Source: Promethearchaeota archaeon
GTDB lineage: Archaea > Asgardarchaeota > Lokiarchaeia > Sigyniarchaeales > SOKP01
DNA: 64,000 nt
NCBI GenBank assembly: GCA_019894975.1
Contig: JAGXNO010000003.1
Span: forward strand, 32,001-96,000
Direction of reading: 5' to 3'
Positions 1 through 56,703 of this stretch are shown in pieces. Under the pieces are notes generated by a model, which saw only the letters and a list, made by a program, of their open reading frames with translations, was not told where the DNA came from and ran no database searches. The position numbers and the translations under genes were made by a program. Each line of letters opens with the position of its first letter. The stretch's first letter is position 1.

Positions 1-379
1 TTAACTTACTTACGTAGTTTTCCAGAGCATTTACATTTATAATATTTGAAATTTCTGTATTACAATTACAAATAATAACCCCAACTCGACTTATTTCACT
101 TCCCTTTGAATCTAAATACTCGTCAATATCTTCTCCTGATAAAATCCTTTTATTAATATTTAATATCTTAAGGACTCGCTTTCCTTCTTCTGTAAGAAAA
201 TATGATTTCTTATCTTTATCTATTAAGGATCCAATTTTTTTGAGATGGAAGTTTAACTGACCAGTTGTTTCTAAACCAAGTCTTTCCATTAAATCTGTAT
301 ACGGAAGATAACCCTCATTTTCTAGAAGGAGTAATACCTTTCTTCTAAATGGATGAGATAATATTGAATATATATCCAT
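1..379 (-). CDS. ArsR-like winged-helix regulator fused to an HdrA N-terminal Fe-S-like domain (runs off left edge)
   Basis: Not in ORF track. Manual translation from ATG at 379: MDIYSILSHPFRRKVLLLLENEGYLPYTDLMERLGLETTGQLNFHLKKIGSLIDKDKKSYFLTEEGKRVLKIL...SRVGVIICNCNTEISNIINVNALENYVSKL; open to position 1. Confidence 0.8.
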   Translation of the reverse strand, partial: MDIYSILSHPFRRKVLLLLENEGYLPYTDLMERLGLETTGQLNFHLKKIGSLIDKDKKSYFLTEEGKRVLKILNINKRILSGEDIDEYLDSKGSEISRVGVIICNCNTEISNIINVNALENYVSKL

Positions 380-480: not shown

Positions 481-1638
481 TTAATCGTCGTCAATTTCTA
501 AAGCTAAAGGTGGAGATTTCCATGTAATCAATTTATTTTTCATAAAGTTTTCAAATCGTTCCATCTTTAATTGACAGAATTGAGAAATTTTCTCTTTCAT
601 TTTCTCTTTGCTTGTTACCTCCAATCTAAAAGATTTAATTACTCCTGCATTAATTACTTTCCTAATTATATCTATTCCTTTTTTAGTGCGAGTGATTACT
701 GTAGTAAATTTATCCGTAGAACCTAATCCCCCAAATGAGATATCAGCATAAATACTAGTGAAATCGCTACAAGCAAGACAAGCTTGACGCATATAATCAT
801 TTATACTTTCAAAGGGGATATGGATTATTTTTTGAGTGGCTCCTCTGTTTTTCAATTTAATGATTAAATCTTCTTTAATGTTTATTCTTTCTACATTTTC
901 GAATTTCAGATTGAATTCTTTTTCAAACTTCTCAATTCTGAGCTTATCAAAAAAGAAGTTCTCGTAACAAAATAATCCTAAACAAAGCTCAATATTCTCT
1001 GAAGGAATAATACCTAAACTTTGCATGCATCTAATAGTATAAATTTGGCACGGTGTTCCAACCACAGCTAATCTTTTAAATTTGTAATCTCTTAATTGGG
1101 GAAGTGAACTTGTATATGTGTGAAATTTCTGTAATTCATTTAGCTGTGGAGATAAATCTAATTTAAGTCCTGATGCCTCTATTAAATCTTTTTTATTTCT
1201 AGCAATTGTGGCTTCTCTGGAAAAGGCAGTTTTTGTTTTTGCAACGATAGCCCCATCAATTACTTTCTTCTCTAATAAATAGTTTATTATTGAGTTTACT
1301 ACACCTCCATCTGTTCCAATTTTTAAAAAATCTTTATCTGTGGCTTGACATGAATAAATATTGTCGATAAATCCAAAGGGCATGGATGAAAAACTTGTAA
1401 AATTATAAGTTTTCTTGAGATCACCGTCTAAAATATGAGTCTGTGGGCAAAGTAAATAACAAATTCCGCATTCAAGACATTTATCCTCATTTATATATTT
1501 TGGAGGTGAATTAGGATCCTTCATGCTAATTACATCATGTTCAATCGAATTACAAAAACTTACACAACCTCCACATTGTTGGCATATACCAGGTTCGTGA
1601 ACTTCTTTAATTAAATCCTTAAAATTCTTTATCTTCAT
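481..1638 (-). CDS. Coenzyme F420 hydrogenase/dehydrogenase beta subunit (FrhB/FdhB family) with N-terminal ferredoxin
   Basis: CQQCGGC and CLECGICYLLCP; DGGVV, VGTPCQ, GLFC, CLACSDFTSIYADISFGGLGS; paralogue of 61477..62589. Confidence 0.88.
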   Translation of the reverse strand: MKIKNFKDLIKEVHEPGICQQCGGCVSFCNSIEHDVISMKDPNSPPKYINEDKCLECGICYLLCPQTHILDGDLKKTYNFTSFSSMPFGFIDNIYSCQATDKDFLKIGTDGGVVNSIINYLLEKKVIDGAIVAKTKTAFSREATIARNKKDLIEASGLKLDLSPQLNELQKFHTYTSSLPQLRDYKFKRLAVVGTPCQIYTIRCMQSLGIIPSENIELCLGLFCYENFFFDKLRIEKFEKEFNLKFENVERINIKEDLIIKLKNRGATQKIIHIPFESINDYMRQACLACSDFTSIYADISFGGLGSTDKFTTVITRTKKGIDIIRKVINAGVIKSFRLEVTSKEKMKEKISQFCQLKMERFENFMKNKLITWKSPPLALEIDDD

Positions 1639-2054
1639 TATCAGAAATCACCAACTGTATTTATAATCTCGACATCCTAATGACTATTTTAGTAAATATT
1701 ATGATTACTATGATAAATATTATTGTCAAAATATATAAATATATCTTTTTTCGTATATTGATAAGTGAAAAACCTCAATTGAATATTAGAGAATGATAAG
1801 GAGTATATTGAATTTGGATCAGGGATAGGTCCGATTCGTTCATCAAATAAAAAATTGATAAGCAGATTTATCAAAATAACAAATATTTTTCTTATCAGAT
1901 TTTTTAAATTTCTCTCACCTCATAATTTTATCGTAATAGAGTATTAGAAAGTGATTATTATTTCATTTTTGGAAATTCAGTATTTTTTTCAAAATTGAAA
2001 ATAAAAAATTTTTATTAAAAAAATAACGGGTGATATTTTACAAAGGTGGATTAG

Positions 2055-4091
2055 ATGTCTGAAGTGCAGACCAATGTTAGAATAGGAGTGTATATCTGTA
2101 GATGAGGAGTAAATATTGGTGCAAGCATTGATTGCGATATTCTGAGAAATTATGCGGAACTACTCACGGGTGTCATGATTGCTAGAGTAAATGATTTTAC
2201 TTGCAGTGATCCAGGACAAACACTTATTAAGAATGATATTTTAGACTTAGATTTAAATCGGATTGTCGTTGCTGCTTGTACACCAAAAATTCATGAATCC
2301 ACCTACCGAGCAGTATTAATTGAAGCAGGATTAAGTCCATACTATTTTCAAATGGTTAATCTACGCGAGCATTGCTCTTTTATTCACTTAAATGATAAAA
2401 AGAATGCTACTGAAAAAGCTCTAAGATTACTACAAGCAGGAATAAATCGTGCACGGGAATTAGAAATTATCCCTTATAAAAAAATATCGATGGAAAGAGC
2501 TGTTTTAATTATTGGAGCGGGAATTGCGGGGATGAATGCTGCTTTAGATTTAGCAAATCAGGGGATTCCTGTTTATTTAGTCGAAAAAGAAGCCACAATT
2601 GGTGGAAAAATGGCACAATTAGACAGAATTTACCCCACCGATGATTGTGGGATATGAGTACTCGCACCTATTATGGTGAGTGCTTCAAAGCACCCAAATA
2701 TAAAATTATTTACCTATAGTGAAATTATTGAATTTAATGGGATCCCTGGTAATTATAATGTCAAAATACGAAGAAATCCTCGTTATATTAATGAAAAGAA
2801 ATGTACTGGTTGCGGGTTATGTACAATAAAATGCCCAATAAAAGTCCCGAATGAATTTAATAGAGGTATTGGAGAAAGGAGCGCAATTTACATACTTTTT
2901 CCCCAAGCGGTTCCAAAAATTGCTTTAATTGATAGAGATGTCTGTATAGAATGTAAAAATTGTCAAAAAGACTGTCCAGCAGAAGCTATTGAATTTGAAC
3001 AAGAACCTGAGTTTATCGATTTAACAGTTGGAGCAATCATTGTTGCTACTGGATGGGATGAATATCCAATTATGAAATATAACGATTATAAATATGGTAT
3101 TTATCCTAATGTAATTACACAACTAGAGTTAGAACGAATTTTAAGTCCAATTGGACCAACAGGGGGTCATCTTTATAGAATCTCTGATGGTAAAACCCCA
3201 AGAACAGTAGCTATGATTCAATGTGTTGGCTCGAGATCCTTAAAGGGGAACCCTTATTGTTCTGTAGTTTGTTGCAGTGTTGCTCTTAAAAACGCTCAAC
3301 TGCTAAAACAAGAATATCCGGGTATGGATATTGTTATTTTTTATATAGATGTTCGAGCATGGGATAAAGGGAATGAAGAATATTATAGAAAAGCAAGAGA
3401 AGCAGGTATAATGATGGTTCGGGGAAAAGTAGGAGATATACGAGAAGATCCTGAAACAAAAAAGCTAAAGATTCGAGCTTCTTCAACTTTAACTGGTGAA
3501 TTTATTACCTTGAACGCAGATTTAGTCGTTTTATCAACAGGTATGGTCCCTTCTAAAAATACAGCAAAAATCATTGATATTTTAGGATTAAATAAGGATT
3601 CGAATGGTTTTTTAAAAGAGATTCATGGATGCCTCAAACCTCAAGAGACAAATAATATGGGTATTTATATATGTGGATGTGCCGCTGGACCTAAAAATAT
3701 CCCTTATTCCGTATCAACAGCCTTAGCTGCAGCAAGTAAGGTATCAACATTACTTTCTAAAGATACAATAATTCAAGAATTAATTATTGCTGAAATAGAT
3801 GAAAATCTGTGCATGGGTTGTCATAGATGTGAAAAACTCTGTAATTATAAAGCAATCACAGTAAATGGAGAAAATTTTGCGGAAGTAGATGATTTAAAGT
3901 GTAGAGGTTGTGGCGTTTGTGTTTCATCATGTCCCGCTCGAGCAATCGATCTCAAATATTATAGAGAAAAACAATTTGTCGAAGAAATAAAAGGGATTTG
4001 TAGTACTGAAATTGAATTTAAGGAGGAATATTTTGAATCTATTGAAATCGTAATGAAAGAGATTGAAGCATTAGCTCCTCATAAAATTTAA
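2055..4091 (+). CDS. hdrA: Heterodisulfide reductase subunit A (HdrA), putative selenoprotein with two in-frame UGA (Sec) codons
   Basis: ATG 2055 after AAGGTG; frame continuous with ORFs 2175..2657 and 2673..4091 apart from TGA at 2103-2105 (RIGVYICR-U-GVNIG) and 2655-2657 (PTDDCGI-U-VLAP); both align to Cys in HdrA paralogues of this window; GAGIAG FAD motif, ferredoxin motifs. Confidence 0.9.
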
Positions 4092-4161: not shown

Positions 4162-4550
4162 AATAATAATTTATCTTAGATTTAGAGTTTTGATGTATAG
4201 AAAATTTTTTCTAATTTTAGCATTTTGATACTAAGTTTAAATTATGATTAATATATAACTTCCCTTATAGGCAATTTAAGGGATTTCTAATTTCCTATTA
4301 TAAGTGTCATTTAATTATTATATTTTTTTATTTTTTTGTTAAAAAAATTGACAATTTTTTTTTTCATATCATATCTATTAATATGCTAGAAATGTGATTT
4401 TTAACTTTATACTGCCATAAAAGAAAAATTCACTAAAGTTATAGATTGACAATAAAGTTTGTCAAATCCAATAAAATTTTTGTTATCAGATTCTTTAAAT
4501 TCTGAGCTTTTGTTTATTTACTTGGAATAGTTAGATTTATTTATTATGAG

Positions 4551-5204
4551 GTGAGAATTAAGATGGAAGTTTTGGAAATTAAACCTGTTAGGAATAAAGA
4601 AATTAGAGTATATCTGATAAAAATATCTAATAGAAAATCAAAACCTAATGCAAAGGTAAATTTAATTGAGTTTTTAAGTCGTATAAATGTTAATTTTGCC
4701 ACAATTGATTTAGAAAACGAGAATCTAAGAAGTTTTAATAAGTCATCCTTAGCAAAAACATTGGAACAATATAATATTCCTTATTACATAGTAAATATCC
4801 CTGAATATGCGATGGGTTATCTTATGACGGAAATAATAGAAAAAGTAGAACAAGTTGACGAATTAATAGAAGAATTTCTTAGTATGAGCAATAAAGAATC
4901 CATTAAAGGGCTGAATTTAAAATCTTGGATTGATTTTCTCAAAGAAGAGATCGATGAAAAGAAATTATTTTTAGAATTAAAGCTAAGACCAGAATGGGTT
5001 GTTAAGAAAATTCTAGATATAATAAGACCTAAAAATAATAATGAAATCACCTTCGTCCATTTTGCTCAGGATAAGATATTTAATGAAACAATGAAGCTAT
5101 TAAAAGATTTATCTATAGAAGTTAAAGTTTATGAGCAAAAAAAAGAACCTTTTATTGTACATTTAATTACAAATGAGGAGGAATTAGACCAATGGAAGTA
5201 TTAG
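4551..5204 (+). CDS. Hypothetical protein, paralogous to N-terminal domain of the downstream gene (likely start ATG 4563)
   Basis: MEVLEIKPVRNK vs MEVLELKPLKKK; IPYYIVNIPEYA vs IPYKMVDISENA; overlaps next start. Confidence 0.7.
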   Translation: MRIKMEVLEIKPVRNKEIRVYLIKISNRKSKPNAKVNLIEFLSRINVNFATIDLENENLRSFNKSSLAKTLEQYNIPYYIVNIPEYAMGYLMTEIIEKVEQVDELIEEFLSMSNKESIKGLNLKSWIDFLKEEIDEKKLFLELKLRPEWVVKKILDIIRPKNNNEITFVHFAQDKIFNETMKLLKDLSIEVKVYEQKKEPFIVHLITNEEELDQWKY

Positions 5205-6868
5205 AATTGAAACCATTAAAGAAAAAAAGTTTAAAACTGGTGTTGATAGAAAGTGAATTTCCAATAGAATGGTGGTTTGAGGTATCGGCACAAAAGAAAC
5301 ACGATTTAGTTTGGAATTTAAATCTAGTTTCGAGGGAGTATCTTAATCTAATTGAAGATCTTATAAAAAAACACAATCCAAATTTCGCTATTGAGGAAAA
5401 GGGGAGTCGTTGGGAGGATACGATATCCCATGAAGATCCTATTGAGATATTATTTAGAGAACACGAGATTCCCTACAAAATGGTTGATATTTCAGAGAAC
5501 GCTGAAGATTATCTCTCTTCAAACTTGGAGGATCTAAGAACTTTTATAAAACAGTTAACAAAATCGATTAAAAGTTCAAAAAAGGTTGAGGGTTATAAGG
5601 ATGATTATATGTTTCTACGACAATTATTATGGAAGGATTATCTACAACAAGAATATGATAGTCAAGAAGATGAAATAAGGTATAAAGTTCGAGAAGCTTG
5701 GATGATGATGGGGATTCTTAAAATAGCAAAAAATTTGGAAGATAAAAAGCTAAACGCATTCTTTATCTGTGATTCTAATCATTTCAAAGGTATTACTCAA
5801 TTAGCTGAAGAGTTGGCTATAGAAACTGAAGAAATAAAAGTTAAACGATCAATTAAAATTATAAATAATCCTGGCTCAGGATCGATTAAAAATATAATTG
5901 GAAAATCTATACTTGAATTAACACCAATTAAAGTAAAAAAAAAGGAAAAACTTGATAAAATCTGTTATTTTTTTGATACAGACGAAAATGCTTCTCCTTT
6001 TGATATAAATATGGCTTATGACGCAGGCTTTGACGTGGTGATCCCATTTAGCAACATAAAAGCAAATCAGGTACAAAAATTAGTCCAAGATGCTATTTTT
6101 TCACGTAAACCAGGGGCACCTACATCATTTTTTATTGGGGGATCGAATGTGAAAGAAGGTGCAAAAATAGTCACAAAAGTTATAAAATCATTAGTACCAC
6201 CCTTTGAATGTCCAATCATTATCGATCCTAGAGGATCGCACACAACGGCATCTTCGATTGTGGCAAAAACCATGGAGATAGCTGAAAACCATAATATTGA
6301 TGATTTGAGAGGAAAAAAGGTTGTAATTTTAGGAGCGGGCCCTGTAGCTCAGATCGCAGCGATATTATCTGCTAAATTAAAATGTGAAACATATTTGGTA
6401 GAGACTTGGAATAAATCAAATAAGGAGTTTATCGAAGAATTATCAAAAGAGTTATCTAAAGAAGCAGGAAATGCTGCTACAATAATTCATGGAGAATTTG
6501 CTATAACTGAGGAAGAAAAATACAGTATTTTAAAAGATGCAGATTTTATATGGTCTTTGGCTGCAGTAGGTATTCAAGTTTTATCGAAAGATTTAATGGT
6601 TAAGCTAAAAAATAAAATCGTATGTGATATTAATTTAGTTCCACCCTATGGAATTGATGGATTAAAACCAAAGGATTTTAATGCTGAAATATTTCCTAGT
6701 ATTTTTGGAACTGGAGCATTAGCCATTGGTCGTCTCAAATCCAAAGTTGAGGAAACAATTTTAAAGGAAGCTTCAGCTACCATTGGAAAGAAAACATTTG
6801 ATTATCGATATGCTTTTGAAACAGCGAAGAAGATTTTGTTTGGAAGTGAAATTAAAATTACTCTTTAA
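5192..6868 (+). CDS. NAD(P)-dependent methylene-H4MPT dehydrogenase (MtdA/MtdB type) with ~250-aa extra N-terminal domain
   Basis: SPFDINMAYDAGFD, VQDAIFSR, PPF...DPRGSHTTA, GAGPVA Rossmann, DINLVPPYGIDG, GALAIGRLK. Confidence 0.82.
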   Translation: MEVLELKPLKKKSLKLVLIESEFPIEWWFEVSAQKKHDLVWNLNLVSREYLNLIEDLIKKHNPNFAIEEKGSRWEDTISHEDPIEILFREHEIPYKMVDISENAEDYLSSNLEDLRTFIKQLTKSIKSSKKVEGYKDDYMFLRQLLWKDYLQQEYDSQEDEIRYKVREAWMMMGILKIAKNLEDKKLNAFFICDSNHFKGITQLAEELAIETEEIKVKRSIKIINNPGSGSIKNIIGKSILELTPIKVKKKEKLDKICYFFDTDENASPFDINMAYDAGFDVVIPFSNIKANQVQKLVQDAIFSRKPGAPTSFFIGGSNVKEGAKIVTKVIKSLVPPFECPIIIDPRGSHTTASSIVAKTMEIAENHNIDDLRGKKVVILGAGPVAQIAAILSAKLKCETYLVETWNKSNKEFIEELSKELSKEAGNAATIIHGEFAITEEEKYSILKDADFIWSLAAVGIQVLSKDLMVKLKNKIVCDINLVPPYGIDGLKPKDFNAEIFPSIFGTGALAIGRLKSKVEETILKEASATIGKKTFDYRYAFETAKKILFGSEIKITL

Positions 6869-56187: not shown

Positions 56188-56290
56188 TATTTAGCACTTC
56201 TAATTTTTTTTAATAAGGTTTAGTTTACAGAATCTTTTTTCCCGTTGAATAAAAAATAAGGATATGAAATTATATAAACATTTTTATAAT

Positions 56291-56399
56291 GAATGATCAG
56301 AATCTAACATTTTTTGCTTTGTGAATGATCAGTCCCAAATATTTGTCACTTTTATATTTTCGTAATCAACCATTCCGTTACTTTTGTATTTTCGTAATC
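56291..56399. promoter_or_regulatory. Two pairs of direct repeats (32-bp spacing) upstream of hdrA
   Basis: GAATGATCAG at 56291 and 56323; GT(C/T)ACTTTT(A/G)TATTTTCGTAATC at 56345 and 56377. Confidence 0.5.
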
Positions 56400-56703
56400 G
56401 TTTATTTTGTTTGTTAATGTTATATTATTAGGAAGAATAGATCCAGATTGATAACTTATTTTGGGTTTTAAGATGGATTCAAGCATGATCACAATTCTTT
56501 CTTACCTATTATCTGCATTATGTTTATTGGTGATAATAAAAAATGGATTAATGATCCATATCTCTCACACAAATCCAAATACTTATTAAGATTGATCAAA
56601 GATCAAAGATATAATAGAGAAAATACTATTCTTTGAAAAAAAATGATTTTAGAATAAAAATTTTTTTTGGAACTATTAATAAAAATTGAGATAAATTCTT
56701 TAT

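Follow-up and report, generated by a model that had tools for sequence, protein, structure and literature searches.

The window analysed here is a stretch of 64,000 nucleotides (nt) from Promethearchaeota archaeon (assembly GCA_019894975.1, contig JAGXNO010000003.1, forward strand), corresponding to G000:C109:32001-96000, where G000 is the window's own genome. At its left edge starts a minus-strand gene that fuses an ArsR-type winged helix-turn-helix (wHTH) domain to HdrA. The frame opens at an ATG at position 379 and leaves the window at the left edge, so that 126 codons are visible (2-379). We completed it with the neighbouring DNA of the contig, which gave a full frame of 849 amino acids (aa) with 723 codons beyond the window and the gene end at G000:C109:29830. 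The following parts lie in the window:

137..379, minus strand: ArsR-type winged helix, aa 1-81 (Pfam DUF7347, AF2, Foldseek, invariant residues)
137..379, minus strand: parts of the wHTH, namely alpha1-alpha3, the recognition helix at aa 39-52 (TGQLNFHLKK), the beta wing at aa 53-62 and the start of alpha5
89..136, minus strand: end of alpha5 and tether, aa 82-97 (low predicted local distance difference test score, pLDDT; predicted dimer interface; conserved residues)
1..88, minus strand: opening part of the HdrA N-terminal [4Fe-4S] domain (aa 98-126, including C104 and C106), after which the gene runs on past the window edge

According to Pfam and solved structures, the fusion protein begins with the ArsR-type wHTH (aa 1-81), which a tether joins to a complete HdrA, and ends with MvhD. 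The winged helix was matched by Pfam DUF7347 at aa 2-71 (E 1.8e-11) and more weakly by HTH_24 and HTH_20; the stretch RVGVIICNCNTEISNIINVNALENYVSKL comes after it. Residues 95-715 align end to end with the solved HdrA 8rvu_a (E 4e-112) and also with 5odc_A, and residues 722-841 represent MvhD (Pfam FlpD at aa 725-841, E 9.7e-35; alignments with 8rvu_F and 5odc_D). The part of the frame outside the window encodes a flavin adenine dinucleotide (FAD) domain, two ferredoxin domains and then MvhD. In an earlier reading of the window made from its letters, here called the sequence-only reading, an ArsR-like wHTH had been proposed to be fused in frame to the HdrA N-terminal domain. This was borne out: the wHTH is real and of the ArsR type, the quoted strings are present in the 126 residues, and the HdrA string used for comparison is present elsewhere in the window (minus strand, from 58854). 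The fusion partner had been described as a piece of HdrA, which fell short, as the full HdrA and, in addition, MvhD follow.

The cofactor sites were largely conserved in 18 diverse members. The ligands of the N-domain [4Fe-4S] cluster (HA3), C104, C106, C139 and C164, were present in all 18, and C195 was present in 16. In the FAD domain (Pfam NAD_binding_8 and Pyr_redox_2), GGGIAG was found at aa 247-252 and the flavin-adjacent DCSIC has the invariant residues C291 and C294. The further N-domain ligands and the FAD domain, which the sequence-only reading had left to the adjacent DNA, are therefore both there. The inserted and the C-terminal ferredoxin domains (Fer4 families, two [4Fe-4S] clusters each) kept 8 + 8 cysteines in 18/18 members, as did MvhD its [2Fe-2S] cysteines C730, C733, C759, C784 and C789. 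The HA4 motif CxGSRD...CSxxCC reads QCAGSPDHQHKLHD in the window protein, with one of the four cysteines, and so departs from the HdrA pattern. At the HA4 positions (aa 478-500), four cysteines were found in distant clades and in Bathyarchaeia, and two, one or none in the window's clade (L017-L036). As judged from the alignments, HA4 is a site that was lost stepwise in the window's clade, after the wHTH fusion. In the methanogen enzyme, HA4 hands on to HdrBC the high-potential electron that leaves the bifurcating FAD, and the HA3 cluster of the N-domain is a shuttle on a mobile arm (PMC13580544). The loss of HA4 fits with the fusion operon, in which hdrBC was not found at any locus examined.

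The fusion gene is followed directly, in the same orientation and with stop and start codons that overlap, by genes for two further subunits, a small one resembling MvhG (252 aa) and a [NiFe] large one resembling MvhA (437 aa; L004 7772-9085, corresponding to G000:C109:27772-29085). This three-gene module, wHTH-hdrA-mvhD / mvhG / mvhA, was constant in 20 diverse loci and was present in all complete loci examined. The large subunit ends at the His of DPCLSCVAH, where 5odc_F has 25 more residues, and in its L1 motif, RICGLCYASQ, a Gln replaces His in the window's clade. Lack of the extension was also restricted to this clade (L004, L035, L036); in other clades, the subunit has a tail of 6-13 aa and the His is kept. 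The best solved relatives of the large subunit were MvhA (group 3c), NAD-reducing and sulfhydrogenase enzymes, and an affiliation with group 2b sensors was not obtained. We consider the 849-aa architecture and the operon as described to be practically certain.

The architecture is not an artefact of this assembly. More than 120 protein clusters with 66-93% identity, nearly all of 849 aa, carry DUF7347, HdrA and FlpD; their sources are mostly metagenome-assembled genomes (MAGs) of Promethearchaeota/Lokiarchaeia, and they are annotated merely as 'hydrogenase iron-sulfur subunit' or 'FAD-dependent oxidoreductase'. When 400 genomes of the phylum were searched with aa 1-235 of the fusion, about 118 contained a single open frame of approximately 850 aa spanning the wHTH and the HdrA N-domain. 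Fusion-bearing genomes belong to at least 9 families, with protein identity down to 37%. The junction, which according to the sequence-only reading might have been chimeric, is authentic: it contains neither a stop nor an alternative start, and with hundreds of assemblies showing the architecture, an assembly chimera or a two-gene read-through was ruled out. Among the >120 clusters, no short form limited to wHTH and HdrA N-domain was detected besides fragments at contig ends and start miscalls at M31. The latter are 818-821-aa forms without the first 30 residues, which begin at the conserved M31 and were taken as start-codon miscalls, not as real variants.

Presence of the fusion is patchy. 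In the window's genus, it was found in about 40 of 53 genomes, and it is missing from several genomes with a completeness of 97-99%. In one fusion-less genome (G190; L040 8659-8826), a 56-aa mvhA relic with 68% identity was detected beside an mtdA-like gene, suggesting that the hydrogenase module was deleted there not long ago. A divergent 825-aa cluster came from Bathyarchaeia MAGs and is encoded with the same three genes. At one Bathyarchaeia locus (L043, GCA_038882875.1), the module is located behind gcvH, HoxE/F/U-like genes and the gene of a 477-aa small-subunit-like protein, all on the same strand.

Next to the enzyme core, the wHTH has the features of a DNA-binding head. The AF2 model of aa 1-100 reached a pLDDT of 95-97 over aa 11-70 and showed the ArsR topology alpha1-alpha2-alpha3-alphaR-beta-beta-alpha5. 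The leading Foldseek matches were all DNA-binding repressors of the ArsR/SmtB, HxlR and MarR types (YodB, CadC, BigR, NolR-DNA, PagR, QsrR-DNA; template modelling score 0.5-0.75), and a weak sequence match to 1y0u was obtained (E 0.016). A profile search with the wHTH retrieved 2,425 proteins, which were mostly small stand-alone DUF7347/HTH_20/HTH_5 proteins, plus the HdrA fusions. In the recognition helix, G40, N43 and H45 were invariant in 32 diverse members with 37-93% identity to the window protein. When two copies were predicted together, the homodimer score was 0.58, compared to 0.01 for the best of 3 controls; among proteins with solved structures, 20 of 30 same-chain pairs and 1 of 23 single chains attained this value. 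At least 93% of the contacts agreed between runs, and the pLDDT of the partner was at least 85. The predicted interface comprises aa 2-13 and 68-92 (alpha1/alpha5, as in ArsR dimers) and leaves the recognition helix and the wing free. It accounts for the strong conservation of the apparent linker, in which aa 64-92 are highly conserved and N76, R78, L80, G82, I85 and Y88 are kept in the close family. In the full-length model (pLDDT 84.7), aa 76-94 were below 50 and the wHTH was not packed on the enzyme core. The wHTH thus looks, in the model, like a tethered head on a flexible linker of about 19 residues. A metal- or thiol-sensing site of the ArsR type was not found: aa 1-97 contain no Cys, and the sole His residues are H9 and H45. 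Therefore, any signal must come from the enzyme part.

A candidate operator for such a head was found in the promoter region. It is an 18-bp inverted repeat, TGAYAA-N6-TTRTCA, located upstream of loci whose proteins share just 37-60% identity. The sites in the window and the genes around them are as follows:

481..1638, minus strand: FrhB-like gene, 385 aa, first operon gene in the window's genus (Pfam FrhB_FdhB_C, E 2.6e-35; FrhB_FdhB_N, E 3.7e-15)
1711..1728, no strand: candidate operator O1, TGATAAATATTATTGTCA, the promoter-proximal site, located about 80 nt before the ATG of the frhB-like gene; same position in congeners
1732..1739, minus strand: TATA-like element TTTATATA, directly 5' of O1; putative TATA role
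1856..1873, no strand: candidate operator O2, TGATAAGCAGATTTATCA, distal, in the divergent region with Sec-hdrA; strict match, 15.4 bits
2055..4091, plus strand: Sec-hdrA, 678 codons with two in-frame TGA, divergent, possibly sharing the O2 region
4349..4366, no strand: operator-like site, 16.3 bits, intergenic, upstream of the 213-aa gene
4447..4464, no strand: candidate operator O3, TGACAATAAAGTTTGTCA, located about 100 nt before the 213-aa / mtdA-like gene pair
4563..5204, plus strand: 213-aa Asgard-specific protein, recurrent neighbour of the fusion operon
5192..6868, plus strand: 558-aa MtdA-like dehydrogenase (Pfam Mpt_N, E 1.5e-26, and a Rossmann domain in the C-terminal half)

Strict sites were strongly enriched. 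In 240 kb from 31 loci of other genomes, 27 were counted, whereas the reversed pattern gave none and second-order Markov simulations yielded 0.17 on average and at most 1. At least one strict site was present in 7 of 11 clade representatives. The sites are positioned 50-300 nt upstream of the first operon gene (frhB where present) and are often paired, 145-230 bp apart; in distant clades, a further site is located at +4630, right after mvhA and before the mtdA-like gene. The window site at 4447 and this +4630 site precede the same genes, those for the ~213-aa protein and the ~560-aa MtdA-like protein. In the window's genus, a partner site of O1 recurs in congeners at a distance of about 145-170 bp, and TTTATATA directly 5' of O1 was conserved in every locus examined. 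Five distant genomes had 1-3 strict sites each, with one at the operon in four of the five. In one genome (G122), the sole strict site in 3.8 Mb is located about 90 nt upstream of the fusion gene, and the promoter of clade f4 keeps a 10-base core of the palindrome.

On the scale of the whole genome G000 (3.93 Mb), 7 strict sites were detected, compared to 1-6 in simulations, and three of the seven are those at window positions 1711, 1856 and 4447, within 2.7 kb. With a weight matrix trained exclusively on sites of other genomes, the window sites 1711 (20.9 bits) and 4447 (20.1 bits) were the first and second matches of the genome. Further intergenic matches were window 4349, window 1856 and a palindrome-like site of 15.8 bits upstream of an hdrD-like operon (C109:26372), and most of the remaining matches were inside open reading frames (ORFs). 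Other intergenic matches, on C138, C87, C111 and C97, had no link to redox genes. A strict site at C93:25581, 3.6 kb from another hydrogenase, was rejected as an operator; it lies inside an unrelated ORF and is probably due to chance. We also rejected a global regulon of all hdrA genes, since the window has five hdrA N-domain motifs and operator-type sites just at 1711, 1856, 4349 and 4447. The sequence-only reading had suggested two intergenic regions for electrophoretic mobility shift assay (EMSA). The region 1639-2054 holds two of the palindrome sites, and no operator-type site was found in 56188-56703. Altogether, the palindrome is very probably a functional element.

The motif tracks the fusion gene. 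In genus g54, six genomes with the fusion had 2, 2, 3, 2, 1 and 3 strict sites (controls 1, 0, 0, 0, 0 and 0), and five genomes without it had 1, 1, 0, 0 and 0 (controls 1, 1, 1, 0 and 1). Among the sites listed for the window's genus, close pairs (~150-170 bp apart) were found at the fusion operon alone. Three fusion-less congeners, among them the one with the mvhA relic, keep the mtdA-like gene and yet have no site within 17-18 kb. In the conserved genes, no second DNA-binding domain was found. The 213-aa neighbour was considered as the true regulator and rejected, as it matches no DNA-binding Pfam family and yielded just unnamed Asgard clusters in the ESM Atlas. With the motif tracking the gene, O1 adjacent to a TATA-like element and no other DNA-binding domain at hand, autoregulation by the wHTH would be the simplest reading. 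A regulatory, DNA-binding role of the wHTH is plausible because of the conserved candidate operator.

These data suggest the following mechanism. The two wHTH heads of a dimeric subunit would pair through alpha1/alpha5, and the paired heads would bind the palindrome TGAYAA-N6-TTRTCA. Archaeal repressors usually act directly 3' of the TATA box, and since O1 is located just downstream of the TATA-like box, binding there would keep the transcription machinery from assembling. In this way, a small local regulon, made up of the operon of the hydrogenase subunit itself and the mtdA-like pair, would be repressed by that subunit. On a more speculative level, the state of the enzyme (redox, cofactor or assembly) could loosen or strengthen DNA binding; as the wHTH hangs on the N-domain with the mobile shuttle cluster, expression could then follow H2 or the redox state of ferredoxin. 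We lean, with some reserve, towards the model in which the wHTH binds the palindrome and the protein is a bifunctional hydrogenase subunit and autorepressor, comparable to PutA and BirA. An effect of the enzyme's redox or assembly state on DNA binding is a tentative and rather doubtful extension of it. Its farthest form, in which the hydrogenase itself is a transcription factor, with MvhA/MvhG/(wHTH-HdrA-MvhD) moving on and off the operator driven by electrons from H2 or reduced ferredoxin, and the enzyme of the window's clade may have drifted towards a pure sensor, appears unlikely.

Several observations weigh against DNA binding by the head. The link between wHTH and palindrome rests on co-occurrence, the joint loss of an operator and its adjacent gene could be a simple co-deletion, and an unlinked regulator could bind the palindrome. 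Genomes of the same genus are related, so that the counts given above overstate independence, and in the AT-rich genus of the window (g1) the contrast was weaker and noisy (5.2 versus 3.8 sites per genome; controls 2.5 and 2.7). Clade f28 and the partial locus of clade f2 were without any site. Bathyarchaeia keep the 10-base core alone, at the cluster ends and not directly upstream; at L043, two identical 18-mers, AGACAAGAAAATTTGTCT, were found, one at each end of the larger cluster. On the structural side, the Foldseek E-values were weak (2.6e-3 or higher), and the dimer prediction may have passed due to likeness to solved ArsR dimers.

Winged helices are often protein interfaces in archaea and eukaryotes, and the wHTH could accordingly be a structural or docking module that holds the mobile arm or else a partner subunit or some second complex, with the palindrome serving an unlinked transcription factor of the redox island. 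There is a precedent: in the MvhD-like adaptor BamF, a wHTH motif is a protein-protein interface and contacts BamI (bioRxiv 10.64898/2026.04.10.717634). The high conservation of aa 64-92 would suit docking as well, and so would the co-deletion just mentioned. However, the full-length model leaves the wHTH unpacked on the core behind a tether with a pLDDT below 50, the nearest folds are all DNA-binding repressors, and the predicted interface is an ArsR-type self-dimer with exposed recognition helix, in which the invariant residues G40, N43 and H45 sit. Moreover, fusion-less congeners show no motif excess, which an unlinked general regulator would not predict. We therefore regard a mere docking role as improbable. 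The sequence-only reading had offered yet another solution, in which the wHTH and the N-terminal Fe-S domain of HdrA alone form a small one-component Fe-S redox sensor. The 126 residues visible in the window do look so, but the adjacent sequence, with its 849-aa frame through the FAD domain, two ferredoxin domains and MvhD, refutes it and leaves it next to no chance. The product of the ORF is an enzyme subunit with a DNA-binding head and not a small one-component sensor, because it has the full HdrA and MvhD and is co-transcribed with the subunits of a [NiFe] hydrogenase.

A further alternative applies to the window's clade, where the module could be an H2 or redox sensor, that is, a regulatory hydrogenase that no longer works as an enzyme. 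MvhAG would read H2, electrons would pass via MvhD to the flavin and Fe-S clusters of HdrA, and reduction would make the wHTH bind or leave the DNA. In this clade alone, the HA4-type cluster is lost, with one of four cysteines left, and the large subunit lacks the extension and has Gln for the L1 His. The operon is without hdrBC, a histidine kinase gene is located directly downstream, and a second, conventional mvhAG-hdrCB cluster is present elsewhere in the genome. All other cofactor ligands are intact, however, and the FrhB-like catalytic subunit added under the candidate operator in the window's genus suggests a working output. The best solved relatives are group 3c MvhA and not group 2b sensors, and the kinase also neighbours the island in fusion-less genomes. 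HA4 and the large-subunit tail are both retained in distant clades that have the same wHTH and operator, and thus sensing cannot explain the origin of the fusion. A module that only senses is therefore quite improbable, and we prefer the bifunctional enzyme and autorepressor.

In HdrA2 of Methanosarcina, HdrA is likewise fused to MvhD. Asgard and TACK HdrA fusions have been surveyed, with several hdrA copies per Asgard genome and no mention of a DNA-binding domain (PMC11237513). C-terminal fusion to MvhD is common to those proteins and ours. Compared to the methanogen MvhADG-HdrABC complex (5ODC, 8RVU, 9SW2; PMC13580544), the HdrA core, the N-domain cluster, the flavin Cys pair and the ferredoxin domains are alike, and homologues of MvhD, MvhG and MvhA are present. 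In contrast to that complex, there is an N-terminal wHTH, MvhD is fused to HdrA and hdrBC is missing from the operon; in the window's clade, the HA4 motif and the C-terminal extension of the large subunit are absent as well. BamF resembles the fusion in carrying a wHTH on an electron-bifurcation module of the MvhD/HdrA type, but its wHTH is inside the MvhD-like subunit, whereas here an ArsR-like head is tethered N-terminally and is associated with a palindrome (bioRxiv 10.64898/2026.04.10.717634). In the literature searched, we found no description of a wHTH-HdrA fusion, of DUF7347, of the TGAYAA-N6-TTRTCA palindrome or of a relevant regulator of Asgard hydrogenases. What is new here is a hydrogenase subunit with an ArsR-type head and a conserved promoter palindrome, which suggests self-repression of the operon.

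In function, the closest parallels are PutA and BirA, enzymes that repress their own operons, and SurR. PutA combines a ribbon-helix-helix (RHH) domain with a proline dehydrogenase/pyrroline-5-carboxylate (P5C) dehydrogenase flavoenzyme and is a repressor switched by flavin reduction, and BirA is an enzyme-repressor fusion of an N-terminal wHTH and biotin ligase. Both bind, dependent on dimerization, to a palindromic operator in their own promoter. The fusion likewise has a DNA-binding domain and an enzyme in one chain, and comparison of genomes supports an operator in its own promoter, which the protein would occupy. The folds and the chemistry are unrelated, and the enzyme here belongs to a multi-subunit metallo-hydrogenase. 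SurR of Pyrococcus furiosus is a stand-alone redox regulator of hydrogenase genes with an ArsR-type wHTH, a CxxC switch and the binding site GTTn3AAC. The archaeal ArsR-type wHTH is shared, whereas in our case it is part of a hydrogenase subunit, has no Cys and is paired with the candidate site TGAYAA-N6-TTRTCA. HoxBC-HoxJ-HoxA of Cupriavidus is a regulatory [NiFe] hydrogenase with a phosphorelay output. The extension-less large subunit (in the window's clade only) and the kinase gene nearby are similar, but the large subunit here is group 3c-like, a subunit would itself bind DNA as the output, and distant members look catalytic. A PAS-kinase partner, typical of regulatory hydrogenases, was not found, as the neighbouring kinase shows HATPase_c alone.

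H2 metabolism and electron bifurcation are central to the presumed syntrophy of Asgard archaea and to models of eukaryote origin. A domain of about 100 residues, an 18-bp candidate operator and a small set of proposed targets, namely the hydrogenase operon and the gene of an MtdA-like one-carbon (C1) enzyme, would constitute a circuit that is directly testable and requires no cultured host. If autorepression is true, the fusion would be a new example of an enzyme doubling as repressor; if redox-dependent DNA binding is true, it would be the first hydrogenase-borne transcription switch. Asgard archaea and some Bathyarchaeia would then read the partial pressure of H2 at the DNA, with neither a separate sensor nor a phosphorelay. 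The stepwise loss of HA4 in one clade is, in addition, a natural experiment on HdrA without the HdrBC branch.

The surroundings of the operon are partly conserved. The sequence-only reading had placed the fusion near frhB and divergent from Sec-hdrA, and this is correct: the FrhB-like gene (481-1638) is upstream on the same minus strand, where it is co-transcribed with the fusion in the window's genus, and Sec-hdrA (2055-4091) is on the plus strand. FrhB was dismissed as a fixed partner, since it is not conserved beside the fusion beyond close relatives; by comparison of loci, it is a recent addition in these. The two TGA codons of Sec-hdrA are at positions that are Cys in paralogues (ICRUG, DCGIU), and no mvhD is located behind the gene. 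It probably encodes an HdrA with two selenocysteines and, as predicted from its position, possibly shares the O2 region. After mvhA, a membrane histidine kinase gene is followed by an hdrD-like / double-hdrA / mvhD / frhB-like operon. The kinase gene (L004 6624-7700, outside the window) has a homologue near the mtdA-like gene in fusion-less congeners. The operon (L004 49-6073, outside the window) has genes for a 409-aa HdrD-like protein with CCG domains, a double HdrA of 1037 aa, MvhD and another FrhB-like protein.

The 213-aa / mtdA-like pair travels with the fusion operon and, in other clades, is divergent from the fusion across the operator region. Because the pair shares both this linkage and the same palindrome, a functional link of the hydrogenase with a C1-carrier dehydrogenase is suggested. 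The first ~265 residues of the 558-aa protein appear paralogous to the 213-aa protein (BLAST identity 23-26%, E ~1e-10, run with the 213-aa protein against the orthologous MtdA-like genes of G186 and G215). Similarity of the 213-aa protein to a Bathyarchaeial 179-aa protein was marginal (E 0.002 over 36 aa).

In the window's genus (1700-1760; L007, L009, L012, L015, L016), O1 is flanked by conserved GATCA motifs in the order GATCAYATTTATATAT, O1, TAGAGATCAT; these flanks could represent the site of a second protein or shared ancestry. The other [NiFe] hydrogenase, the sole second one of the genome, is encoded at G000:C93:19076-24289 and comprises a 439-aa small-subunit-like protein, a 434-aa large subunit and hdrC- and hdrB-like genes. 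The gene ahead of it encodes a 187-aa protein whose N-terminal sequence is, by eye, Lrp/AsnC-like.

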